DNA of 64,000 nucleotides from Escherichia coli (GTDB lineage: Bacteria > Pseudomonadota > Gammaproteobacteria > Enterobacterales > Enterobacteriaceae): the NCBI RefSeq assembly GCF_046105845.1, contig NZ_CP151004.1; one strand, written 5' to 3'. The notes under the pieces were generated by a model. It was not told the DNA's origin and ran no database searches. It saw nothing but the letters and a program-made list of their open reading frames with translations. Position 1 is the stretch's first letter. Each line of letters begins with the position of its first letter. Both the position numbers and the translations under genes were made by a program. Positions 1,907-19,719 of the stretch are shown here, piece by piece.

Positions 1907-2416
1907 TTACTTCTTGATGCGGATAACCGGGGTTTCACCCACGGTTACGCTACCGGACAGTTTGATCAGTTCTTTGATTTCGTCCATGTTGGAGATAACA
2001 ACCGGAGTCAGGGTAGACTTGGCTTTCTCTTCCAGCAGCGGCAGATCAAATTCAATGACAGTATCGCCAACTTTCACGCGCTGACCTTCTTCAGCAATAC
2101 GCTTGAAGCCTTCGCCTTTCAGTTCAACGGTGTCGATACCGAAGTGGACGAACAGTTCAACGCCGCTATCAGATTCGATAGAGAACGCGTGGTTAGTTTC
2201 AAAGATTTTACCAATGGTGCCGTCTACAGGCGCGACCATTTTGTTTCCAGTTGGTTTGATAGCAATGCCATCACCAACGATTTTTTCCGCAAAAACGACA
2301 TCCGGCACGTCTTCGATATTGACGATCTCGCCAGAGAGCGGAGCAATGATCTCAATAGTTCCGGTATCCTTCTTGTCGTCGGAAACCAGAGATTTCAGTT
2401 TATCGAACAAACCCAT
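1907..2416 (-). CDS. crr: PTS glucose-specific enzyme IIA (EIIA-Glc)
   Basis: 169-aa [19 protein letters not shown]... recognised as Crr. Confidence 0.95.
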
Positions 2417-2456
2417 GATCTTCTCCTAAGCAGTAAATTGGGCCGCATCTCGTGGA

Positions 2457-4184
2457 TTAGCAGATTGTTTTTTCTTCAATGAACTTGTTAACCAGCGTCA
2501 TTAACTCGTCCGTTGTCGGTTGAGCAAGAGCCTGCTCTGCTAACACCTTCGCATCTTCGAAGTTCGTGTTACGGATAATCTTCTTAATGCGCGGGATAGA
2601 AATGGCGCTCATAGAGAATTCGTCCAGACCCATCCCCAGCAACAGAAGTGTAGCACGTTCATCGCCAGCAAGCTCACCACACATGCCAGTCCATTTGCCT
2701 TCAGCATGAGAAGCATCAATAACTTGCTTGATCAAGTTCAGCACGGACGGTGACATTGGCTGGTAAAGGTGTGAAATCATATCATTACCACGGTCAACTG
2801 CCAGAGTGTACTGCGTTAAATCATTGGTGCCGATACTAAAGAAATCAACTTCTTTGGCTAAATGACGTGCAATTGTTGCGGCAGCCGGTGTTTCCACCAT
2901 TACGCCGATTTCAATTGACTCGTCAAACGCTTTACCTTCGTCGCGCAGTTCCTGTTTGTAGATTTCGATCTCTTTGCGCAGTGCACGTACTTCTTCAACA
3001 GAGATGATCATCGGGAACATAATGCGCAATTTACCGAAAGCCGAGGCACGCAGGATAGCGCGGAGCTGATCGCGCAGGATCTCTTTACGATCCATCGCGA
3101 TACGGATAGCGCGCCAGCCGAGGAACGGGTTCTCTTCTTTCGGGAAGTTCATGTATGGCAGCTCTTTGTCGCCGCCGATGTCCATGGTACGAACGATAAC
3201 CGCCTGCGAGCCACACGCTTCAGCCACTGCTTTGTAAGCAGCAAACTGTTCTTCTTCAGTGGGCAGCGCGTCGCGGTCCATGAACAGGAACTCAGTACGA
3301 TACAGACCAACGCCTTCAGCGCCGTTACGCTCTGCACCTTCAACGTCACGAACCGTACCAATGTTAGCGCACACTTCTACCTGGTGACCGTCCAGCGTAA
3401 TAGCTGGCAGATCTTTCAGTTTAGCAAGCTCTGCTTTTTCAGAAGCCACTTGCTCCTGAACAGCGCGCATTTTATCAATAACTTCGTTGGTTGGATTGAC
3501 GTAAACCTGATTATTTACGGCATCCAGAATCAGATAGTCGTCATTTTTCACCTGAGAGGTGACGCTACCGGTACCCACGATAGCAGGCAGTTCCAGAGAA
3601 CGCGCCATGATAGAGGTGTGGGAAGTACGGCCACCCGCGTCGGTGATGAAACCCAGCACCTTCTTCAGGTTCAGCTGTGCGGTTTCGGACGGCGTCAGGT
3701 CAGCGGCAACCAGAATGACTTCATCCTGAATGGCGCTCAGGTCGATAATCTTCAGGCCCAGGATGTTGCGCAGCAGGCGCTTACCGATATCACGTACGTC
3801 AGCCGCACGTTCTTTCAGGTATTCATCATCCAGCTCTTCCAGGGCAGAAGCCTGACCTTCGATAACTTCATGAGCAGCTGCGTCAGCTGTCATGTGCTTA
3901 TCTTTAATCAGGGCTATGATTTCCTGCTCCAGCTCCTCATCTTCGAGCAGCATAATATGCCCTTCAAAGATGGCTTCTTTTTCTTCACCGAACGTTTCAC
4001 CAGCTTTCGTTTTGATCGTTTCCAGCTGGGCTGATGCCTTGGCACGACCGCTCAGAAAACGTTCAACTTCCTGATCAACCTGGTCGGCAGAAATTTTTTT
4101 CCGGTCAATGACAATTTCGTCTTCTTTCAGAAGCAGAGCTTTACCGAAAGCGATACCCGGGGATGCTAAAATGCCTGAAATCAT
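2457..4184 (-). CDS. ptsI: PTS enzyme I (phosphoenolpyruvate-protein phosphotransferase)
   Basis: 575-aa [22 protein letters not shown]... recognised as PtsI. Confidence 0.95.
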
Positions 4185-4228
4185 AACCCTACCTTACTTG
4201 TGACTGATTTTTAAAAGAACCCGGGAAA

Positions 4229-4486
4229 TTACTCGAGTTCCGCCATCAGTTTAACCAGATGTTCAACCGCTTTCTGCTCGTCTTCGCCTTCTGCGGAGAT
4301 AGTCACAACGGTACCTTGAGTCAGGCCCAGAGTCTGCAGTTTAAACAGGCTTTTCGCGCTGGCGCTTTTGCCGTTGGAAGTCACAGTAATTTCAGAAGTG
4401 AAGCCCTTAGCTTCTTTTACAAACTGGGCAGCAGGGCGGGTGTGCAGACCGTTCGGAGCGGTAATGGTAACTTCTTGCTGGAACAT
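4229..4486 (-). CDS. ptsH: Phosphocarrier protein HPr
   Basis: 85-aa [32 protein letters not shown]... recognised as HPr. Confidence 0.95.
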
Positions 4487-4818
4487 TGTATTTCCCCAAC
4501 TTATAGGTTTAGTGTTGTGGAACTAAAGTCTAGCCTGGCGGTTCGACTTTAGCCTGTATTGTTAGCGCCAGTTTTTAACAGACGCGATGCACGAAGAGCG
4601 CAATACAGTCCATTGCTGGCGGGTGTTGACCGCTGACGTTTCGTACGTCATTAAACATTATGCCGCTAAAGGAAGAATTGAACCAAATCATAAAATCGAT
4701 TCAGCTTTGGCTTTTCCTGTAACGATTAATTTCGCGCATCAAAATAATTAGTCTGGTTAAATACCAGTTCCGACAGGCTGAATCAATGCCAGGAGGGGCG
4801 AAAGTTTGAAGCAGGCCA

Positions 4819-4848
4819 CAAAAAAGCACCTGAAAAGGTGCTTTTTTA
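4819..4848. terminator. Rho-independent terminator downstream of cysK (minus strand)
   Basis: Hairpin agcacc-tgaaaa-ggtgct flanked by A-run and T-run. Confidence 0.6.
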
Positions 4849-4869
4849 CGCATTTTTAACAAGCTGGCA

Positions 4870-5841
4870 TTACTGTTGCAATTCTTTCTCAGTGAAGAGA
4901 TCGGCAAACAATGCGGTGCTTAAATAACGCTCACCCGATGACGGTAGAATAACCACAATATTCTTGTTGGTAAAGCTTTCATCTTCTTGTAGTTTCAACG
5001 CCGCAGCAACAGCTGCTCCAGAAGAGATACCTGCAAGAATACCTTCTTCTTCCATCAGACGACGCGCGGTAGAAATGGCTTCTTCATTGGTGATGCCAAT
5101 GACTTTATCGACCAGCTTGAGATCGAGGTTCGCCGGGATAAAACCAGCGCCAATACCCTGAATTTTATGCGGGCCAGGTTTAATCTCTTCACCTGCCAGC
5201 GCCTGGGCGATAACTGGAGAATCGGTTGGCTCAACGGCGACAGAGATAAGATCGGTCTTGCCTTTGGTGCCTTTAATGTAGCGGCTGACGCCGGTCAGCG
5301 TACCGCCAGTCCCAACGCCAGCAATAAATACATCAACCTGACCGTCGGTATCTTCCCAGATCTCCGGACCGGTGGTTTTTTCGTGAATTTCAGGGTTTGC
5401 CGGATTGCTGAATTGTTGCAGCAGCAGGTATTTCTCTGGATTGCTGGCGACAATTTCTTCTGCTTTTTGGATTGCGCCTTTCATGCCTTTAGCACCTTCG
5501 GTCAGCACCAGGTTTGCACCTAACGCTTTCAGCAGCTTGCGGCGTTCAATACTCATGGTTTCTGGCATGGTCAGGGTGAGTTTGTAACCGCGAGCGGCAG
5601 CGACATAGGCCAGTGCAATCCCGGTATTACCGCTGGTCGGTTCAACCAGTTCAACGCCTGGTTTCAGCACGCCGCGCTTTTCGGCATCCCAAATCATGTT
5701 GGCACCGATACGGCACTTAACGCTGAAGCTGGGGTTACGAGATTCCACCTTCGCCAGAATGCGTCCGTTACCGATGCGATTCAGGCGAACCAGCGGCGTG
5801 TGACCGATAGTCAGCGAGTTATCTTCAAAAATCTTACTCAT
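4870..5841 (-). CDS. cysK: Cysteine synthase A (O-acetylserine sulfhydrylase A)
   Basis: 323-aa [47 protein letters not shown]... recognised as CysK. Confidence 0.95.
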
Positions 5842-6025
5842 GGCCTGTCCTTAACTGTATGAAATTGGGATACAACAGGTAGCATACCCGCTCAGAGAAT
5901 ATGCGGAAGTAAGGATTTAGCATATCTATATGCAGAAGGGAAATAATGACATGCAAGATGGAATAAGGGGCGGCATAAGCCACCCCTGTTTCACACAAGC
6001 GGTTTACAAAATAACCGGTAGATTG

Positions 6026-6787
6026 TTACCGCCACATCGCGTGTTTATCGCGATAGCAATCGACCCACATCGCCGTCGCACCACAAACGGCAACGGGCAT
6101 GATGAACAGATTAAGCAGAGGGATCATCGTAAACAGGCTGGTTAAAGCACCAAACTGCATATTGGTGATTTTGCGTGTGCGCAGGGCGGTGCGCATCTCT
6201 TTAAACGGCACTTTGTGGTTATCGAAGGGGTAATCGCAATACTGGATGGCTAACATCCAGGCGCTAAACAGGAACCACAGTACCGGCGCGACGGTTTGCC
6301 CAATACCAGGGATGAAGTAAAGAATTAGCAATACAATTGCGCGCGGCAGATACCAGGCAAATTTTTGCCATTCGCGTTTCATGATTCGCGGCACATCTTT
6401 CATGATACCGAAAATCCCGGTATCTGGCGGTGTAGCGCCAGTCAATCGTGCTTCCAGTTGTTCAGCCAATAAACCATTGAACGGAGCGGCAATCCAGTTA
6501 GCAATCGTTGAGAAGAAATAGCCAAACACTAACAGCACAGAGATGACAGCCAGAGGCCACAACAGATAGCTCAGCCATTGTAACCAGTCCGGAACATAAC
6601 TCATGAGAGTCGGGATCCAGACATCGAGTTGCGTAAAGAGCCACCAGAATGCGCCCCCCATCAACAAAATATTGACCAGCAGCGGTAAAATAACGAAACG
6701 CCGAATCCCAGGTTGCGAGACGAGCTTCCAGCCTTGCGCAAAATAGTAAAAACCGCTGCGTGGGGCAGATGTGAATGATGAAACCAT
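6026..6787 (-). CDS. cysZ: Sulfate transporter CysZ
   Basis: 253-aa multi-pass membrane ORF recognised as CysZ; synteny next to cysK. Confidence 0.9.
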
Positions 6788-7016
6788 AATCAGGATGAGC
6801 TCCTTTTGACCAATCCCAGGAAAATTCTGCGTATTTTACCGGGTAATTGCGCAATGGACAGTTAGGATATGTTCGAAAAAACAGCAAAAAGCACGATTTC
6901 ATCTATCTTTGTGCTGTGAAAGTTAATAGTGCACTTGCACTTGAGGTAATCGGCAAATACTCTTAGTGAGTAAATGTTTGCCGTGGTGGCAAGGTGTTAG
7001 AACAACAGAGAATATA

Positions 7017-8015
7017 ATGATGCAGGATTTGCGTCTGATATTAATCATTGTTGGCGCGATCGCCATAATCGCTTTACTGGTACATGGTTTCTGGACCAGC
7101 CGTAAAGAACGATCTTCTATGTTCCGCGATCGGCCATTAAAACGAATGAAGTCAAAACGTGACGACGATTCTTATGACGAGGATGTCGAAGATGATGAGG
7201 GCGTTGGTGAGGTTCGTGTTCACCGCGTGAATCATGCCCCGGCTAACGCCCAGGAGCATGAGGCTGCTCGTCCGTCGCCGCAACACCAGTACCAACCGCC
7301 TTATGCGTCTGCGCAGCCGCGTCAACCGGTCCAGCAGCCGCCTGAAGCGCAAGTACCGCCGCAACATGCTCCGCGTCCAGCGCAGCCGGTGCAGCAACCC
7401 GTGCAGCAGCCTGCCTATCAGCCGCAGCCTGAACAGCCGTTGCAGCAGCCAGTTTCGCCACAGGTCGCATCAGCGCCACAGCCAGTGCATTCAGCACCGC
7501 AACCGGCACAACAGGCTTTCCAGCCTGCAGAGCCTGTAGCGGCACCACAGCCTGAGCCTGTAGCGGAACCGGCTCCAGTTATGGATAAACCGAAGCGCAA
7601 AGAAGCGGTGATTATCATGAACGTCGCGGCGCATCACGGTAGCGAGCTAAACGGTGAACTGCTTCTTAACAGCATTCAACAAGCGGGCTTCATTTTTGGC
7701 GATATGAATATTTACCATCGTCATCTTAGCCCGGATGGCAGCGGCCCGGCGTTATTCAGCCTGGCGAATATGGTGAAACCGGGAACCTTTGATCCTGAAA
7801 TGAAGGATTTCACTACTCCGGGTGTCACTATCTTTATGCAGGTACCGTCTTACGGTGACGAGCTGCAGAACTTCAAGCTGATGCTGCAATCTGCGCAGCA
7901 TATTGCCGATGAAGTGGGCGGTGTCGTGCTTGACGATCAGCGCCGTATGATGACTCCGCAGAAATTGCGCGAGTACCAGGACATCATCCGCGAAGTCAAA
8001 GACGCCAACGCCTGA
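7017..8015 (+). CDS. zipA: Cell division protein ZipA (start taken at ATG ATG CAG, 51 nt inside the track ORF)
   Basis: N-terminal TM helix [26 protein letters not shown], charged region, long P/Q-rich linker and C-terminal FtsZ-binding domain. Confidence 0.9.
7270..7590 (+). repeat. Low-complexity Pro/Gln-rich coding repeats (ZipA flexible linker)
   Basis: Repeated cag-ccg-gtg-cag-cag-cc motifs encoding PQPVQQP-type units. Confidence 0.5.
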
Positions 8016-8076
8016 TACACTTAAGGCAAATTAACTCCTCTTCGAACCCCCGCTTGTCGGGGGTTTTTAGCATTGA

Positions 8077-10101
<2,025 letters not shown>

Positions 10102-10102
10102 G

Positions 10103-10321
10103 ATGGAAAAAGAGCAGCTGATTGAAATAGCCAATACGATAATGCCGTTTGGCAAATACAAAGGGCGTCGCTTAATCGACCTGCCGGAGGAGTATCTTCT
10201 GTGGTTTGCCCGCAAAGATGAGTTCCCGGCAGGGAAGCTCGGTGAGCTAATGCAAATCACGCTGCTGATTAAAACTGAGGGGCTGACGCAACTGGTCCAG
10301 CCCCTGAAGCGTCCTCTTTAA
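10103..10321 (+). CDS. ypeB: Small protein YpeB (DUF3820); start taken at MEKEQLIEIANT, 2 nt after the ligA stop
   Basis: 72-aa ORF immediately downstream of ligA, as in K-12. Confidence 0.7.
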   Translation: MEKEQLIEIANTIMPFGKYKGRRLIDLPEEYLLWFARKDEFPAGKLGELMQITLLIKTEGLTQLVQPLKRPL

Positions 10322-11316
10322 GCTTTATTGGCGCGGCTTTCCTGCTGCGCCTGTAACTGTTCGGTCTGGTGTTTGTATCGACGCGCCAGCACCGCACAGA
10401 CCATCAATTGGATCTGATGGAAAATCATCAGAGGCAGCACCATCATACCGATCACCGATGTGGGGAAAAGAATGTTTGCCATCGGGATGCCATTTGCCAG
10501 ACTCTTTTTCGAACCACAAAAGACGATAGTAATTTCATCTGCCTTATTGAAGCCCAGTCGGCGTGCCATAAAGACGTTAACTACAATCACGATAGCCAGA
10601 AGAACGCAGCTGACCACCACGATAAACAGCAATGATCCCCAGCCAACTTTATGCCAGATACCATTAACAACGGCTTCGCTGAACGCTGTATAAACCACCA
10701 ATAGAATGGACGTCTGGTCAGTTTTCGCAATCCATTTTTTATTGCGCGACACCCAGTCACCAATCCACGGCCGGGAAAGATGCCCCAACACAAACGGCAG
10801 CAGCAGTTGCAGCATAATTTTACCGACCTGCTCAAGGCTGCCCCCTGCACCGTGAACATTCATCACCAGACCAACCAGCAATGGTGAAAGGAAAATCCCC
10901 AGCAGGCTGGATGCTGACGCAGAACAAACCGCCGCCGCGACGTTACCGCCCGCCATTGACGTGAAGGCGATTGCAGACTGCACGGTAGCGGGGAGAATGC
11001 ACAAGTAGAGAAAACCGGAGTAGAGCATCGGGTCGACATTTACCGGTTTCCACCAGGCAAACAGCACGCCCAGAATCGGAAACAGCACGAAGGTGCTGCA
11101 CATTACCCACAAATGCAGTCGCCAGTGCCCACCGCCAGCAATAATCGCCTCACGCGACAACTTCGCGCCGTGCATAAAAAACAGCAGGGCAATCGCTGCG
11201 GTGGTCAGATTTTCAAAGAAGGGGACGAAATCGCCTCTGGCCGGAAAGAAAGAGGCCAGCAACACCACCGTGATCAGGGTTAAGGTGAAAGGATCGAGGA
11301 TACGAAAAAGTTTCAT
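10318..11316 (-). CDS. yfeH: Bile acid:sodium symporter (BASS) family inner membrane transporter
   Basis: 332-aa polytopic membrane ORF recognised as YfeH; 3' end overlaps convergent ypeB by 4 nt. Confidence 0.8.
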   Translation of the reverse strand: MKLFRILDPFTLTLITVVLLASFFPARGDFVPFFENLTTAAIALLFFMHGAKLSREAIIAGGGHWRLHLWVMCSTFVLFPILGVLFAWWKPVNVDPMLYSGFLYLCILPATVQSAIAFTSMAGGNVAAAVCSASASSLLGIFLSPLLVGLVMNVHGAGGSLEQVGKIMLQLLLPFVLGHLSRPWIGDWVSRNKKWIAKTDQTSILLVVYTAFSEAVVNGIWHKVGWGSLLFIVVVSCVLLAIVIVVNVFMARRLGFNKADEITIVFCGSKKSLANGIPMANILFPTSVIGMMVLPLMIFHQIQLMVCAVLARRYKHQTEQLQAQQESRANKA

Positions 11317-11405
11317 AAAGACTCCAGATGATCGATGGTTCTATTGTGCTTCTTCCAGTTTGAGAAATAAAATTGATTTATTGCATCCATTCATGAAGAA
11401 AACAG

Positions 11406-12332
11406 ATGAATTATTCTTTAAAACAATTAAAGGTTTTCGTCACAGTAGCGCAGGAGAAAAGTTTTAGTCGTGCAGGAGAGCGTATCGGCCTGAGCCAGTC
11501 GGCAGTGAGTCACAGTGTGAAGGAGCTGGAAAATCATACTGGTGTTCGCCTGCTGGACAGAACCACGCGTGAAGTGGTGCTTACAGATGCAGGGCAGCAG
11601 TTGGCTTTGCGTCTTGAGCGACTGCTGGATGAACTTAACAGCACGTTGCGCGATACCGGGCGTATGGGGCAACAACTGAGCGGAAAAGTTCGGGTCGCTG
11701 CCAGCCAGACCATTTCCGCGCATCTTATTCCGCAATGCATTGCTGAAAGCCATCGCCGCTATCCAGATATTCAGTTTGTCCTGCACGATCGTCCGCAGCA
11801 GTGGGTGATGGAAAGTATTCGCCAGGGAGATGTCGATTTTGGCATCGTCATCGATCCAGGCCCAGTGAGCGATCTGCAATGTGAAGCGATTCTTTCCGAG
11901 CCTTTCTTCTTGCTTTGCCATCGCGATAGCGCTTTGGCCGAGGAAGATTATGTACCCTGGCAGGCATTACAGGGAGCGAAATTGGTGTTGCAGGATTACG
12001 CGTCAGGCAGCCGACCGCTGATTGACGCAGCTCTGGCGCGCAACGGTATTCAGGCGAATATTGTGCAGGAGATTGGTCATCCGGCGACGCTGTTCCCGAT
12101 GGTAGCCGCAGGCATCGGCATCAGTATTCTTCCCGCACTGGCGCTACCATTGCCTGAAGGTAGCCCACTGGTGATAAAGCGCATTACACCGGTGGTAGAA
12201 CGCCAGTTGATGCTGGTGCGCAGGAAGAACCGTTCACTTTCCACCGCCGCACAAGCGTTATGGGACGTGGTACGAGACCAGGGCCATGCGCTAATGGCTG
12301 GGCGGGAAGGGGATCCGTTGTATCAGATATAG
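11406..12332 (+). CDS. yfeR: LysR-family transcriptional regulator
   Basis: 308-aa ORF with N-terminal HTH ([38 protein letters not shown]) and LysR substrate-binding domain. Confidence 0.85.
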
Positions 12333-12664
12333 ATATCGATCTGAGTCGTTTTTTCAACAGGATTTGGAAGGGATGCATTCAGAGACAAACGCTGCTCTTT
12401 CTCCTGCGCTTTTTCTGCCTGCTGTCTTTGCAACTGCGCCAGTTGTGTTTCCAGTAGGGTGATTTGCTGCTGAATCAATTCGGCCTGTTTTTGCTTGTCT
12501 TCAGCACTGCCGCTAGTGTCTGCAATCTCTTTAATTTGTTGAGTGAGTTTGATGATTTGCTGACTTATCCGCGCAATTTGTGAAGCAACATCGCTACCTT
12601 CTGATGCCCTGTTACTACTCTGTGTTTGTATGGAAGGAATTGAAGTTGGAGAGATAGTGGCCAT
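12323..12664 (-). CDS. FlxA-like protein (Ser/Thr-rich N-terminus, Gln-rich coiled-coil); lies where K-12 carries xapABR-yfeN
   Basis: 113-aa [20 protein letters not shown]...[48 protein letters not shown]; GAGGA RBS 7 nt upstream; sigma-28-like promoter just upstream. Confidence 0.6.
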
Positions 12665-12783: not shown

Positions 12784-12859
12784 TGGTGGGTCGTGCAGGA
12801 TTCGAACCTGCGACCAATTGATTAAAAGTCAACTGCTCTACCAACTGAGCTAACGACCC
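12784..12859 (-). tRNA. lysV: tRNA-Lys (anticodon UUU)
   Basis: Reverse complement matches canonical E. coli tRNA-Lys including CCA end. Confidence 0.95.
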
Positions 12860-13439: not shown

Positions 13440-14855
13440 ATGAAAATCAAAACTCGCTTCGCGCCAAGCCCAACAGGCTATCTGCACGTTGGCGGCGCGC
13501 GTACTGCTCTTTACTCCTGGCTTTTTGCACGTAACCACGGCGGTGAGTTCGTGCTGCGTATTGAAGACACCGATCTTGAGCGTTCCACGCCGGAAGCTAT
13601 CGAAGCCATTATGGATGGCATGAACTGGCTGAGCCTGGAGTGGGATGAAGGTCCGTACTACCAGACCAAACGTTTTGATCGCTACAACGCGGTGATCGAT
13701 CAGATGCTGGAAGAGGGCACAGCTTATAAATGCTATTGCTCTAAAGAGCGCCTGGAAGCGCTGCGCGAAGAGCAAATGGCGAAAGGTGAGAAACCGCGTT
13801 ATGACGGTCGCTGCCGCCACAGCCATGAGCATCATGCTGATGATGAACCGTGCGTTGTACGTTTTGCTAACCCGCAGGAAGGTTCTGTTGTTTTTGACGA
13901 TCAGATCCGTGGTCCGATCGAATTCAGCAACCAGGAGCTGGATGATCTGATTATCCGTCGTACCGATGGTTCTCCAACCTATAACTTCTGTGTGGTGGTT
14001 GACGACTGGGATATGGAAATCACCCACGTTATCCGTGGCGAAGACCATATCAACAACACGCCACGCCAGATCAACATTCTTAAAGCACTGAAAGCGCCGG
14101 TACCGGTTTACGCGCACGTTTCTATGATCAACGGCGATGACGGCAAAAAACTGTCCAAACGTCACGGGGCGGTCAGCGTAATGCAGTATCGTGATGACGG
14201 TTATCTGCCAGAAGCACTGCTGAACTATCTGGTGCGTCTGGGCTGGTCCCACGGCGATCAGGAAATCTTCACTCGTGAAGAGATGATCAAATACTTCACC
14301 CTGAATGCCGTCAGCAAATCTGCCAGTGCGTTCAACACCGACAAGCTGCTGTGGCTGAACCATCACTACATTAACGCGCTACCGCCGGAGTATGTTGCTA
14401 CTCACTTACAGTGGCACATTGAGCAGGAAAATATCGATACCCGTAACGGCCCGCAGCTGGCTGATCTGGTGAAACTGCTGGGCGAACGCTGCAAGACGCT
14501 GAAAGAGATGGCACAGAGCTGCCGTTATTTCTACGAAGATTTTGCTGAGTTCGATGCCGACGCCGCGAAAAAACATCTGCGTCCGGTAGCGCGTCAGCCG
14601 CTGGAAGTGGTTCGTGACAAACTGGCCGCGATTACTGACTGGACCGCTGAAAACGTTCATCACGCTATTCAGGCGACGGCGGATGAGCTGGAAGTGGGTA
14701 TGGGTAAAGTTGGTATGCCGCTGCGTGTCGCCGTAACTGGTGCGGGGCAGTCTCCGGCGCTGGATGTTACCGTTCACGCAATCGGTAAGACCCGCAGTAT
14801 CGAGCGTATCAACAAAGCGCTGGCTTTTATTGCTGAACGCGAAAATCAGCAGTAA
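13440..14855 (+). CDS. gltX: Glutamyl-tRNA synthetase
   Basis: 471-aa ORF with HVGG-type motif ([19 protein letters not shown]) and KLSKR motif; divergent from the tRNA operon. Confidence 0.95.
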
Positions 14856-14871
14856 TTAGCGCATAAAAGAT

Positions 14872-14905
14872 AAACGGCAGGAGAGATACCCCTGCCGTTT
14901 TTTAT
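14872..14905. terminator. Bidirectional rho-independent terminator between gltX and yfeD
   Basis: Hairpin aacggcagg-agagatacc-cctgccgtt followed by T-run. Confidence 0.7.
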
Positions 14906-15298
14906 TTATTCTGATTCATCTATGTCGAGACGAGCAAGGAAATTACGAATTCCTTCGCGTGACAAAAATTGCGCAACTTTTTCCTGCTCACTGTGAGTCA
15001 TGTTGTCTATTGCGCTGATGATTTGCCGATAAGCAGGAGTGCGAATCCCCGGTGCGTATTCGGCAAGGGGTTCTTCGGCTTCCAGAAGCATCGGCGTGTT
15101 ATGGAAGGCTGGCGTGTTCTGAATAAACTCGCAAACTTGCGTATCGACCAGAATAAGTCTGGCACGACCGCCTTTCACGCCAGGAAACTTTTCCGTTTTC
15201 CAGCCTTTTTCTCTGATCCAACGGTTAACAGTTTGTTTAGCCACACCGAGGCATTCAGCCAGTTCTTCGGTGGTCATTTTATTGCGTAATCTTTTCAT
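14906..15298 (-). CDS. yfeD: DUF1323 putative DNA-binding protein (HTH)
   Basis: 130-aa ORF with HTH-like segment TTEELAECLGVAKQTVNRWIREKGW; paralogous to adjacent yfeC. Confidence 0.75.
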   Translation of the reverse strand: MKRLRNKMTTEELAECLGVAKQTVNRWIREKGWKTEKFPGVKGGRARLILVDTQVCEFIQNTPAFHNTPMLLEAEEPLAEYAPGIRTPAYRQIISAIDNMTHSEQEKVAQFLSREGIRNFLARLDIDESE

Positions 15299-15299
15299 A

Positions 15300-15659
15300 T
15301 TATTTGCTATCGCGAATCCCTAAGCGTTGTAATAATCCGATAATCCCTTCCCGCAGAAGCAAGGATGTAAACTGTTTTTGTTCAACTGGCGTCATCTCTT
15401 TCGCCAGTGTCACCAGCAACACTTCAAGCGGCGCATCACCAGACAGGGCAGGCGCTTCTCCCTGACCTTCTGGACGTTCAGCATTGCGAATATATTCACG
15501 AACCTGTTCATTGACGTGAACCAGTCGGGCTTTGCCACCCTGGACGCCAGGTTTTGGTGACGTTGTCCAGCCTTCCTTGCGTACCCATTTATTAATGGTC
15601 TGGCGGCTATAGCCGGTCAGTCTGGCAAGTTCATCTGGCGTCATCCTCTCCTTGAACAT
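15300..15659 (-). CDS. yfeC: DUF1323 putative DNA-binding protein (HTH)
   Basis: 119-aa ORF with HTH-like segment TPDELARLTGYSRQTINKWVRKEGW. Confidence 0.75.
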   Translation of the reverse strand: MFKERMTPDELARLTGYSRQTINKWVRKEGWTTSPKPGVQGGKARLVHVNEQVREYIRNAERPEGQGEAPALSGDAPLEVLLVTLAKEMTPVEQKQFTSLLLREGIIGLLQRLGIRDSK

Positions 15660-15879
15660 AACAATTCCCTGAATGTATGTGGGTCTATTAGTCGTTCATT
15701 TTATAACACCACTTTACAGGAAACCGTGACATGAATAACTACTGAATGCGAGCGGTTTTCCAAAATTGTTCATTTGCCTGATTTTTCAGCGATTGAAACT
15801 ACACGTTGCAATTTGCCGTTGACACATTCGGGCGGAATTCATATGATGCCGCCCGTCAACTCGACAAGCTTTACGTGAC

Positions 15880-15955
<76 letters not shown>

Positions 15956-15994
15956 AATTTTGCACCCAGCAAATTTGGTACGTAAACGCATCGT

Positions 15995-16070
<76 letters not shown>

Positions 16071-16078
16071 AATTTCCA

Positions 16079-16105
16079 ACCCTCGCTGCAAAGCGGGGGT
16101 TTTTT
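16079..16105 (+). terminator. Rho-independent terminator after the alaX-alaW operon
   Basis: Imperfect GC hairpin ccctcgc-tgcaa-agcgggg followed by T-run. Confidence 0.6.
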
Positions 16106-16277
16106 GTCTCTGCTTTTTGCCGCTTTTGTAATACAGTCTACGTCCGGGTTAGCGCCGCCTGGTGAAAGCATCATTGGATGAAAAATCGGCAACAGGCTGG
16201 CCCCTGTTTGCTTCGCGATGCGAATAAACTTATTATTTGTGTGCCTGAAAACCCCGATCAGTGAGAGTAGTGTACTC

Positions 16278-18467
16278 ATGTTTGTGGAGCATAACCTGAT
16301 AAAAAATATCAAGATATTCACACTAGCGTTTACGCTCACCGTGGTACTTATTCAGCTATCCCGTTTTATTTCGCCACTTGCCATTATCCATTCCAGTTAT
16401 ATCTTTCTGGCGTGGATGCCACTGTGCGTAATGCTGTCAATCTTGTTTATCTTTGGCTGGCGCGGTGTCGTTCCCGTTTTATGCGGGATGTTTTGCACCA
16501 ATCTGTGGAACTTTCATCTCTCTTTTTTACAGACCGCGGTCATGCTCGGCAGCCAGACGTTTGTGGTGTTGTGTGCCTGCGCAATATTACGCTGGCAGCT
16601 GGGGACGCGTTGGCGTTATGGATTGACCAGCCGATATGTCTGGCAACGTCTTTTCTGGCTTGGTTTGGTGACGCCGATCGGCATCAAATGCAGCATGTAT
16701 CTTGTGGGGAGCTTTTTTGATTTCCCGCTAAAGATATCCACCTTTTTCGGCGATGCGGATGCCATTTTCACAGTCGTTGATTTACTAAGCCTTTTCACCG
16801 CTGTGCTGATTTACAACATGCTTTTCTACTATCTCACTCGCATGATTGTAAGTCCCCACTTTGCGCAGATATTGTGGTGCAGGGATATCGCTCCGTCGTT
16901 GGGCAAAGAGAAACGCGCATTTACCTTAAGCTGGCTGGCAGCGTTAAGCGTGCTGCTACTTCTGCTGTGCACACCGTATGAAAATGACTTTATTGCCGGT
17001 TACCTGGTGCCCGTTTTCTTCATTATCTTTACCCTCGGGGTCGGTAAGCTCCGCTATCCGTTTTTAAATCTCACCTGGGCTGTTTCAACGCTTTGCCTTC
17101 TGAATTACAACCAGAACTTTTTGCAAGGGGTGGAAACCGAATATTCGCTGGCATTTATTCTCGCGGTGCTGATTTCCTTTAGCGTTTGCCTGCTCTATAT
17201 GGTGCGCATTTATCATCGCAGTGAATGGCTTAATCGCCGCTGGCATTTGCAGGCGCTGACCGATCCGTTAACGCTCCTACCCAACTTTCGTGCGTTAGAA
17301 CAAGCGCCGGAGCAAGAGGCGGGCAAGAGTTTTTGCTGCCTGCGCATTGATAATCTTGAGTTTATGAGTCGTCATTACGGCTTAATGATGCGCGTTCACT
17401 GTATCCGATCAATTTACCGTACGCTGCTGCCGTTGATGCAGGAAAACGAAAAGTTGTATCAATTGCCGGGTAGTGAACTGCTGTTAGTGCTGAGCGGGCC
17501 GGAAACGGAAGGGCGACTCCAGCATATGGTTAACATCCTGAATAGTCGGCAAATTCACTGGAACAATACCGGGCTGGATATGGGCTATGGTGCTGCCTGG
17601 GGGCGTTTTGATGGAAATCAGGAAACCCTGCAACCCTTGTTGGGGCAGTTAAGCTGGCTGGCGGAGCAATCCTGCGCACATCATCATGTGCTGGCGCTGG
17701 ATAGCAGAGAGGAGATGGTTTCCGGGCAGACCACTAAACAGGTGCTATTGCTGAATACCATTCGTACGGCGTTAGATCAGGGTGATTTGCTGCTCTACGC
17801 CCAGCCAATTCGCAACAAAGAGGGTGAAGGTTATGATGAGATCCTCGCGCGACTGAAATATGACGGCGGCATTATGACCCCGGATAAGTTTCTGCCCCTT
17901 ATTGCTCAGTTTAACCTTAGCGCGCGTTTTGATTTGCAAGTGCTGGAATCCTTGTTGAAGTGGCTGGCAACACACCCTTGCGACAAAAAAGGTCCGCGCT
18001 TTTCAGTCAATTTAATGCCGCTCACGCTGCTGCAAAAGAATATTGCCGGGCGGATTATTCGTCTGTTTAAGCGTTATCACATCTCCCCGCAGGCGGTCAT
18101 TCTTGAGATCACCGAGGAGCAGGCGTTTTCTAACGCAGAAAGCAGCATGTACAACATCGAGCAACTGCATAAGTTTGGCTTCCGGATTGCGATTGATGAC
18201 TTTGGCACCGGCTATGCCAACTACGAACGGTTAAAGCGTTTGCAGGCTGATATCATCAAAATTGATGGTGTCTTTGTGAAAGATATCGTCACGAATACGC
18301 TGGATGCGATGATTGTGAGATCAATTACCGATCTGGCGAAAGCGAAGTCATTGAGTGTGGTCGCGGAGTTTGTCGAGACGCAACAGCAGCAGGCGCTATT
18401 GCATAAGCTCGGGGTGCAATATCTGCAAGGGTATTTGATTGGTCGCCCGCAGCCATTAGCTGATTAA
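16278..18467 (+). CDS. pdeA: Membrane-anchored c-di-GMP phosphodiesterase (MASE1 membrane domain, degenerate GGDEF, EAL); start taken at MFVEHNL
   Basis: N-terminal polytopic membrane region; C-terminal EAL-domain motifs (EITE..., DDFGTGYAN); position as K-12 yfeA. Confidence 0.8.
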   Translation: MFVEHNLIKNIKIFTLAFTLTVVLIQLSRFISPLAIIHSSYIFLAWMPLCVMLSILFIFGWRGVVPVLCGMFCTNLWNFHLSFLQTAVMLGSQTFVVLCACAILRWQLGTRWRYGLTSRYVWQRLFWLGLVTPIGIKCSMYLVGSFFDFPLKISTFFGDADAIFTVVDLLSLFTAVLIYNMLFYYLTRMIVSPHFAQILWCRDIAPSLGKEKRAFTLSWLAALSVLLLLLCTPYENDFIAGYLVPVFFIIFTLGVGKLRYPFLNLTWAVSTLCLLNYNQNFLQGVETEYSLAFILAVLISFSVCLLYMVRIYHRSEWLNRRWHLQALTDPLTLLPNFRALEQAPEQEAGKSFCCLRIDNLEFMSRHYGLMMRVHCIRSIYRTLLPLMQENEKLYQLPGSELLLVLSGPETEGRLQHMVNILNSRQIHWNNTGLDMGYGAAWGRFDGNQETLQPLLGQLSWLAEQSCAHHHVLALDSREEMVSGQTTKQVLLLNTIRTALDQGDLLLYAQPIRNKEGEGYDEILARLKYDGGIMTPDKFLPLIAQFNLSARFDLQVLESLLKWLATHPCDKKGPRFSVNLMPLTLLQKNIAGRIIRLFKRYHISPQAVILEITEEQAFSNAESSMYNIEQLHKFGFRIAIDDFGTGYANYERLKRLQADIIKIDGVFVKDIVTNTLDAMIVRSITDLAKAKSLSVVAEFVETQQQQALLHKLGVQYLQGYLIGRPQPLAD

Positions 18468-18474
18468 CAGGCGT

Positions 18475-18506
18475 AAAAAAGCCGGGGAATGATCCCCGGC
18501 TTTTTT
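18475..18506. terminator. Bidirectional rho-independent terminator between yfeA/pdeA and nupC
   Basis: Hairpin gccgggg-aatgat-ccccggc flanked by A-run and T-run. Confidence 0.75.
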
Positions 18507-18516
18507 ATGTATGGTT

Positions 18517-19719
18517 TTACAGCACCAGTGCTGCGATTGACGCAGACAGCACACTCACCAGGGTAGAGCCGTAAACCAGTTTCAGACCGAAGCGAGAAAC
18601 CACGTTACCTTGCTCTTCATTCAGGCCTTTAACCGCACCAGCGATAATCCCGATAGAAGAGAAGTTAGCGAAGGAAACCAGGAACACAGAGATGATGCCT
18701 TCAGCACGCGGAGAGAGCGTGGAAGCAATTTTCTGCAGATCCATCATCGCAACGAACTCGTTGGAAACCAGTTTGGTCGCCATGATACTGCCCACTTGCA
18801 GTGCTTCACTGGAAGGAACACCCATCACCCATGCAATCGGATAGAAGATGTAGCCCAGGATGCCCTGGAAGGAGATGCTGTAGCCAAACCAGCCAGTCAC
18901 GGTGGCAAACAGTGCGTTCAGCGCGGCGATCAGGGCGATAAAGCCGATCAGCATCGCGGCAACGATAATGGCAACTTTGAAACCTGCCAGAATGTATTCA
19001 CCCAGCATTTCGAAGAAGCTCTGACCTTCGTGCAGGTTGGACATCTGGATGTTTTCTTCACTGGCATCAACACGGTAAGGGTTGATCAGCGACAGCACGA
19101 TAAAGGTGCTGAACATGTTCAGTACCAGCGCCGCAACGACGTATTTCGGTTCCAGCATGGTCATGTATGCACCAACGATGGACATCGACACGGTGGACAT
19201 CGCCGTGGCAGCCATGGTGTACATGCGATTGCGGGAGATTTTGCCGAGGATATCTTTATAGGCAATAAAGTTTTCAGACTGACCCAGAATCAGGGAGCTG
19301 ACGGCGTTAAAGGATTCCAGTTTGCCCATACCGTTGACTTTGGAGAGCAGGAAACCAATTGCGCGGATAATTACCGGCAACACGCGAATGTGCTGGAGAA
19401 TACCGATCAGTGCAGAGATAAAGACGATTGGGCACAGCACTTTCAGGAAGAAGAATGCCAGGCCTTGATCATTCATGCTACCAAAGACGAAGTTAGTCCC
19501 TTCGTTGGCAAATCCGAGCAGTTTTTCGAACATTTCGGAGAAGCCTTTCACGAAGCCTAAACCAACGTCGGAGTTCAGGAAGAACCACGCCAGTAACACT
19601 TCGATAACAAGCAGTTGAATAACATAACGGATACGAATTTTTTTGCGGTCGCTGCTTACCAGCAGTGCGAGAATCGCAACAACGGCAAGTGCCAGTACAA
19701 AATGAAGGACGCGGTCCAT
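18517..19719 (-). CDS. nupC: Nucleoside:H+ symporter NupC (start taken at [14 protein letters not shown])
   Basis: Polytopic membrane ORF recognised as concentrative nucleoside transporter. Confidence 0.9.

Follow-up and report, generated by a model that had tools for sequence, protein, structure and literature searches.

Among the relatives by fold of the Escherichia coli proteins YfeC and YfeD are pSK1 Par, BldC and RacA, a small terminase subunit, and TorI and the AlpA-type excisionases, in addition to the Mu transposase and the Mu c repressor treated below. The genes yfeC and yfeD lie side by side, and we analyzed them in a stretch of 64,000 nucleotides (nt) of the E. coli contig NZ_CP151004.1 (assembly GCF_046105845.1), referred to here as the window. 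The genes, their Pfam family, the DNA binding of their products and the transcriptome of a deletion strain are already known, the last two from the work of Gao et al. in 2021 (PMC8464067). In that study, chromatin immunoprecipitation with exonuclease digestion (ChIP-exo) located 50 sites for YfeC and at least 36 for YfeD, with one site common to both, and the YfeC motif was an inverted repeat with a 6-nt spacer (PMC8464067). Deletion of yfeC changed the expression of 205 genes, 16 of the 20 direct targets were found to be repressed by YfeC, and yfeD rose by log2 4.3, or about 20-fold, in the deletion strain (PMC8464067). In addition, a yfeC mutant of E. coli K1 colonized the small intestine of neonatal rats poorly (PMC5847654). 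In E. coli BHD6, the element IS903B splits yfeC while yfeD is intact (3946-5371 of its locus), so at least one natural isolate can do without yfeC.

Our analysis indicates that yfeC-yfeD is very probably an operon that is restricted to one lineage, has been inherited vertically and encodes two paralogous small transcription factors, and not the remnant of a mobile element. This reading is carried by the paralogy of the two proteins, their fold, the synteny of the locus, its absence from mobile-element collections and the published genome-wide DNA binding and regulon. In BLASTP, YfeC and YfeD aligned over their whole length with 36% identity (E 5e-27). Split by region, the winged helices are 52% identical, the linkers 12% and the helical hairpins near the C-terminus 35%, and both proteins share the conserved C-terminal motif MTxxEQxxLxxLLxREGIxGFLxRLGI. 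Both matched the Pfam family PF07037 (YfeC-like; gathering score 22.9 bits) from position 1 to position 122 of the 122-position profile, YfeD with 206.1 bits (E 2e-61) and YfeC with 173 bits (E 3.6e-51); all of the 84 aligned relatives matched the family as well. PF07037 was previously named DUF1323, and in K-12 YfeC is b2398 and YfeD is b2399.

The structures of both proteins were modeled by AlphaFold2 from the 84-sequence family alignment, resulting in models with a predicted local distance difference test score (pLDDT) of 79 for YfeD and 80 for YfeC. Each model starts with a winged helix of the order beta-alpha-alpha-beta-beta-alpha (residues 7-61 in YfeD and 5-60 in YfeC), continues with a disordered linker of low confidence (62-87 and 61-77, respectively), and ends in a two-helix hairpin (88-123 and 78-112; pLDDT above 90). 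The recognition helix has the signature QT(V/I)N(R/K)W(I/V)R and the wing the signature GV(K/Q)GG(R/K)A. Among orthologues, the median identities of winged helix, linker and hairpin were 89, 29 and 76% for YfeC, and 74, 27 and 51% for YfeD.

An earlier reading of the window, made from its letters without database searches and called the sequence-only reading here, had pointed to two adjacent small open reading frames (ORFs) at 14906-15659, placed between gltX and the alaX-alaW transfer RNA (tRNA) genes. The coordinates are exact, and the neighbors are as it described. The N-terminal segment that it had noticed in both products fits YfeD 9-33 exactly and YfeC 7-31 at most positions; the similarity, however, spans the full length of the proteins. 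Its excisionase/MerR-like winged helix is right at the level of the fold, as seen in the models and in the profile match to 1tns, with Mu-type as the more precise term. The structure prediction that it proposed gave winged helix, linker and hairpin for both proteins, while the DNA binding and the effects of deletion on the transcriptome that it wished to see had already been published (PMC8464067).

The winged helix belongs to the MerR/excisionase superfamily, in which "Mu-type" describes it more precisely. With the family profile, the only significant match among PDB sequences was the I-alpha domain of the Mu transposase (1tns, E 6.7e-5), in an alignment that takes in the wing motif; the Mu c repressor came next (E 0.029), and some source names bear the PROSITE HTH Mu-type label. 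Searches of the PDB sequences with the single sequences gave no solved homolog, and Foldseek found no full-length two-domain match at E ≤ 1e-3 in PDB or BFVD. The Pfam model PF02316 (HTH_Tnp_Mu_1, cut-off 23.3 bits) reached 14.6 bits with YfeC, which is below the cut-off, and did not match YfeD; it was found at E ≤ 0.01 in 17 of the 84 relatives. HTH_17 (cut-off 27 bits) scored above its threshold with YfeD (31.3 bits) and below it with YfeC (20.9 bits), and the excisionase model TIGR01764 (cut-off 28.8 bits) stayed under it with both (27.5 bits for YfeD, 18.7 bits for YfeC). The same was true of MerR_1 (cut-off 21.6 bits), with 12.3 and 12.6 bits for the two proteins and E ≤ 0.01 in just two of the 84 relatives. 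With MerR_1 under its cut-off and with neither a coiled-coil nor an effector region in YfeD, the RefSeq label "MerR family" for this protein is not supported. The fold alone gives no sign of a mobile origin, because it is also used by the cellular regulators BldC, RacA and MerR.

The yfeCD locus was present in 5425 out of 5426 complete E. coli genomes. The gene order nupC, pdeA, tRNA-Ala, yfeC, yfeD, gltX, tRNA-Val, tRNA-Lys was kept in nearly all of 76 Enterobacteriaceae species outside Escherichia, representing more than 25 genera, with pdeA missing from it in about nine species. In Kosakonia (6799-12357 of its locus), genes for AraC-like, metallo-beta-lactamase-fold and TetR-like proteins follow yfeD in place of gltX, and Enterobacter sp. 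BIGb0383 has three YfeC-like genes in tandem (6001-7141 of its locus). When 1.84 billion representative proteins were searched with the profile, just 269 matched, and the ten full-length ones whose source names were looked up came from Enterobacteriaceae, with the exception of Chimaeribacter and one other organism. The family members furthest from those of E. coli occur as single copies: a YfeC-like gene convergent with gltX was found in Chimaeribacter (8001-8378), the GltX of which is 86% identical to that of E. coli, and in SRR26825337 (413-763), where GltX is just 74% identical. Since these single-copy relatives are still convergent with gltX, the adjacency to gltX predates the duplication. 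Both lie outside the Enterobacteriaceae, where the distribution of the family is patchy.

In the neighbor-joining tree, one duplication follows the single-copy outgroups, and the branches of YfeC (copy 1) are short and those of YfeD (copy 2) long. The median identity to the E. coli protein was 74% for YfeC, 52% for YfeD and 94% for GltX. Compared with K-12, the ratio of non-synonymous to synonymous divergence (dN/dS) of yfeD was 0.09, and yfeC had no amino acid changes; judged from these sequences, both genes are under purifying selection.

The sequence-only reading had offered a different origin, namely that the pair may be a domesticated remnant of a mobile element at a tRNA-adjacent integration hotspot. 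In its recent or recurrent form, this would be a degraded genomic island integrated at the alaWX or the valU-lysV tRNA genes, a proposal that we consider highly improbable. Integrating elements target the 3' ends of tRNA genes. Six tRNA genes do adjoin yfeCD, as an island would lead one to expect; the pair, however, lies on the promoter (5') side of both flanking tRNA operons, which run outward, and the geometry of the locus is thus wrong for integration into a tRNA gene. The content of the neighborhood also varies, with either xapRBA or a FlxA-like ORF 3' of lysV and with IS186 between nupC and pdeA in K-12, but the strain-variable DNA sits past the tRNA 3' ends and not at yfeCD. No integrase-like ORF was found between 12000 and 19000, and a search for repeats resembling attachment (att) sites found none at the locus: apart from the second tRNA gene itself, nothing there repeats a tRNA sequence, in whole or in part. 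The excisionase-like fold of YfeC and YfeD and their slightly low GC content at third codon positions (GC3) could suit an island as well. On the other side stand the presence of the pair in essentially all E. coli and its synteny over more than 25 genera, together with the mobile-element collections. In tblastn, neither protein had a match at E ≤ 1e-3 in 50,697 phage genomes, and at E ≤ 10 only helix-turn-helix fragments appeared (best E 0.07). A scan of IMG/VR with the family alignment gave ten weak matches, confined to residues 1-37, and no full-length homolog. The plasmid search returned 13 records, of which four were chromosome-sized; the two that were inspected keep the chromosomal gene order and are mislabeled pieces of chromosome, so these "plasmid" copies were rejected.

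A capture much further back is the form in which a mobile origin is merely unlikely. The ancestral winged helix would then have come from a Mu-like phage repressor, a transposase I-alpha domain or an excisionase before the radiation of the Enterobacteriaceae, with all other traces erased. The likeness on which this idea depends spans only about 45 residues, and their fold also occurs in BldC, RacA and the MerR family; the window proteins do not reach the Pfam cut-offs of the Mu and MerR models, and the direction of any transfer is unreadable from the present evidence; in addition, the locus holds no remnant of an element and has the wrong geometry for tRNA-gene integration. A fuller scenario, which we regard as quite unlikely, has an early ancestor of the enterobacteria capture the DNA-binding domain of a Mu-like phage repressor or transposase beside gltX; the domain would have been joined to a new dimerization hairpin and the gene then duplicated, with YfeD still under unusual selection or recombination, as its two C-terminal-half haplotypes, about 13% divergent, might suggest. 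Overall, the analysis gave no support to yfeCD as a domesticated mobile-element remnant, and the view is left only in the untestable form of a deep origin of the domain. The remnant proposed by the sequence-only reading thus gives way to core presence, fixed synteny and a lack of phage homologs, att repeats and an integrase, and its integration hotspot to a position on the promoter side, not the 3' side, of the tRNA operons. That reading had also named what would speak against it: homologs spread uniformly through core genomes without mobile association, and no DNA-binding activity. The distribution relative to the alaXW locus, which it had suggested examining, shows the uniform presence and no mobile association, whereas DNA binding is not absent but published (PMC8464067).

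A further label comes from RASTA-Bacteria, which in 2007 predicted yfeD/yfeC as a high-confidence new toxin-antitoxin pair (PMC2374986); it was repeated in the paper on transposon-directed insertion-site sequencing (TraDIS) of strain K1 (PMC5847654). We give hardly any credence to a type II toxin-antitoxin system here, and the label as such is, from the sequences, unlikely. What the pair has in common with such systems is two small adjacent genes, apparently translationally coupled, of which one or both encode a helix-turn-helix. Yet YfeC and YfeD are paralogues with the same DNA-binding architecture, and neither Pfam nor NCBIfam nor PADLOC revealed a toxin-like domain, the matches being weak and restricted to the helix-turn-helix (in PADLOC, just a generic one to mad1). 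Strict vertical inheritance is unlike that of typical toxin-antitoxin loci. Moreover, strains in which yfeC has been deleted or carries an IS903B insertion retain an intact yfeD, and the yfeC deletion strain with about 20-fold yfeD could still be grown and profiled by RNA sequencing.

Several points weigh against the reading of a vertically inherited, self-regulating operon of two transcription factors, or against parts of it. That yfeD goes up when yfeC is deleted is consistent with autorepression of the operon, yet read-through from the deletion scar could account for it just as well. The lone ChIP-exo peak assigned to yfeC (site 33) converts to the 3' end and terminator of alaX, some 400 bp away from where yfeC starts, and not to the yfeC promoter; the conversion relies on a coordinate offset between two K-12 sequence versions that we take to be correct. 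Since tRNA genes with strong transcription tend to produce ChIP artefacts, and since site 33 lies at the alaX 3' end, it was not counted as autoregulation. TTC-N6-GAA and GAA-N6-TTC, after the published TTC-rich inverted repeat, were not found in 15641-16120. That the hairpin mediates homo- or heterodimerization is inferred. The GC3 values of yfeD (44%) and yfeC (47.5%) are lower than those of the neighboring genes (55-62%), which is a mild deviation; weakly expressed genes are expected to show lowered GC3. Finally, the patchy range outside the Enterobacteriaceae would require numerous losses or a degree of transfer.

The features of the locus are collected in Table 1. The segment 14856-15879 of the window is 99.8% identical to E. 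coli 118UI, and both ORFs are named yfeD and yfeC in the annotations of 118UI and K-12. On one side, gltX (13440-14855, plus strand) is convergent with yfeD, and beyond it the valU-lysV operon (minus strand, 13181-12784) is transcribed away from the gltX-yfeD-yfeC block. On the other side, the two tRNA-Ala(GGC) genes (15880-15955 and 15995-16070, plus strand) are divergent from yfeC and point away from yfeCD. In an Rfam scan of the locus, tRNAs were the only matches.

Table 1. Positions of features at the yfeCD locus, in window coordinates.
Feature	Position	Strand	Basis or remark
yfeD coding sequence	14906..15298	-	130 amino acids; ORF and RefSeq annotation
yfeC coding sequence	15300..15659	-	119 amino acids; ORF
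yfeC-yfeD junction TAATATG	15296..15302	-	yfeC stop, one base, yfeD start (sequence)
Hairpin terminator between gltX and yfeD	14872..14900	.	Minus-strand terminator scan, 12 base pairs; inverted repeat I2, T-runs on both sides
Putative extended -10 element of yfeC, TGTTATAAA	15699..15707	-	About 40 nt 5' of the ATG
alaW-alaX promoter, TTGACA/17-nt spacer/TATGAT	15819..15847	+	Divergent from yfeC
tRNA-Ala(GGC) genes alaW and alaX	15880..16070	+	ARAGORN, Rfam, K-12 annotation
Hyper-divergent haplotype block	14800..15170	.	3' half of yfeD, terminator, last ~55 nt of gltX

The TAATATG junction implies that yfeC and yfeD would be co-transcribed and makes their translational coupling probable. The gap between the genes was 1-3 nt in nine of the 17 genera measured and reached 47 nt in Cedecea. 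The hairpin between the convergent genes probably terminates both gltX and yfeD, acting in both directions. The strong alaWX promoter lies within 220 bp 5' of yfeC, matches 11 of 12 consensus positions and is near-invariant in a 15-genus alignment. In the same alignment, a block GGTGCTATAAC (TGnTATAA) is kept about 40 nt before the yfeC ATG and may be the extended -10 promoter of yfeC, although a strict sigma-70 scan did not detect this element. In the K-12 annotation, YfeC has 114 amino acids and starts 15 nt downstream (window 15645-15675). The upstream ATG, giving 119 amino acids, is conserved across 15 genera together with a ribosome-binding site of the AGGAAA type, which favors the longer product as the probable one. 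Read from this ATG, the amino acid sequence of YfeC in the window is identical to that of K-12, while YfeD differs at 12 of 130 residues. A palindrome, TGCGAG-N4-CTCGCA, occurs 5' of yfeC (window about 15738-15755; alignment columns 125-140) in Leclercia, Enterobacter, Yokenella, Phytobacter and Superficieibacter; in Klebsiella it is less perfect, and Escherichia, Salmonella and Citrobacter have only a degenerate form. The palindrome may be an operator.

Differences between strains were also seen beyond the pair. A 113-amino-acid FlxA-like ORF (window 12323-12664, minus strand) lies between lysV and yfeR, beside the tRNA-Lys 3' end at 12784, where K-12 has xapR-xapB-xapA. This place past lysV is on the 3' side of a tRNA operon, which makes an earlier insertion here more plausible than one at yfeCD. 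K-12 carries IS186C between nupC and pdeA (2274-3618 of its locus), which the strain of the window lacks, near 18467-18517. The numbers of tRNA-Val and tRNA-Lys genes in the valU-lysV operon vary between strains.

Compared with K-12, the window is 98-100% identical over the locus, but only 75-89% identical in about 14800-15170. The synonymous divergence (dS) is 0.45 for yfeD and 0.05-0.09 for the neighboring genes. Across 5426 genomes the block is bimodal, with 2240 genomes at least 95% identical to the window type, 3153 at 80-90% and only 33 in between; of the two yfeD haplotypes, that of the window is the rarer one and occurs in about 41% of the complete E. coli genomes. The window-type block is about 13% divergent from the allele of K-12 and the cryptic clades as well as from E. 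albertii, and no close donor was found among the sampled Escherichia species, the best being E. albertii with 86.7%. The pattern of two haplotypes points either to an allele that was acquired from a lineage not sampled or to an old maintained polymorphism, and could be of interest to population geneticists.

Taken together, the history and action of the operon may be pictured as follows. A single ancestral YfeC-like gene, already convergent with gltX, would have been duplicated in tandem before the radiation of the Enterobacteriaceae, after which YfeC evolved slowly and YfeD fast. The pair would be transcribed from a promoter, at the putative position given above, that is divergent from the alaWX promoter, translated in a coupled manner, and its transcript would end at the terminator common with gltX. 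Each protein is expected to contact DNA through its Mu-type winged helix, and the C-terminal hairpin could join two subunits into homodimers or YfeC-YfeD heterodimers that read inverted repeats. YfeC may also repress its own operon. The pair provides a clean case of a one-lineage gene family in which the tandem duplication is dated and the copies diverged at unequal rates. Furthermore, the analysis corrects two labels that are unsupported, "MerR family" for YfeD and "toxin-antitoxin" for the pair, and proximity to tRNA genes is no evidence of integration when the genes occupy the promoter side of these.

YfeC and YfeD can also be set beside known systems. MerR regulators have a long antiparallel coiled-coil and a C-terminal region that binds the effector, whereas the YfeC and YfeD models show a disordered linker and a short hairpin. 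BldC (6amk), the RacA domain (5i41) and pSK1 Par (8csh) are, like them, small binders of the MerR superfamily without an effector domain, but with different modes of oligomerization, and among these RacA is the only one with a weak tie in sequence (E 0.09 for the family profile against PDB sequences, E 0.094 with the NCBIfam RacA model). Unlike excisionases and the related HTH_17 and AlpA factors, such as the Pukovnik Xis (4j2n) and TorI (1z4h), yfeCD has no partner integrase and no att site; its products are about twice the size, carry an extra hairpin that may dimerize, and act as regulators at about 50 chromosomal sites (PMC8464067). In sequence, the nearest solved structures are the Mu-type domains of the transposase (1tns) and the c repressor (1g4d, 1qpm), which have the same strand-helix-helix-wing-helix order and the same wing, GW...GVKGGKA. 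In contrast to the Mu proteins, YfeC and YfeD lack all other Mu domains, have a C-terminal hairpin of their own, and are encoded by core genes of the chromosome.
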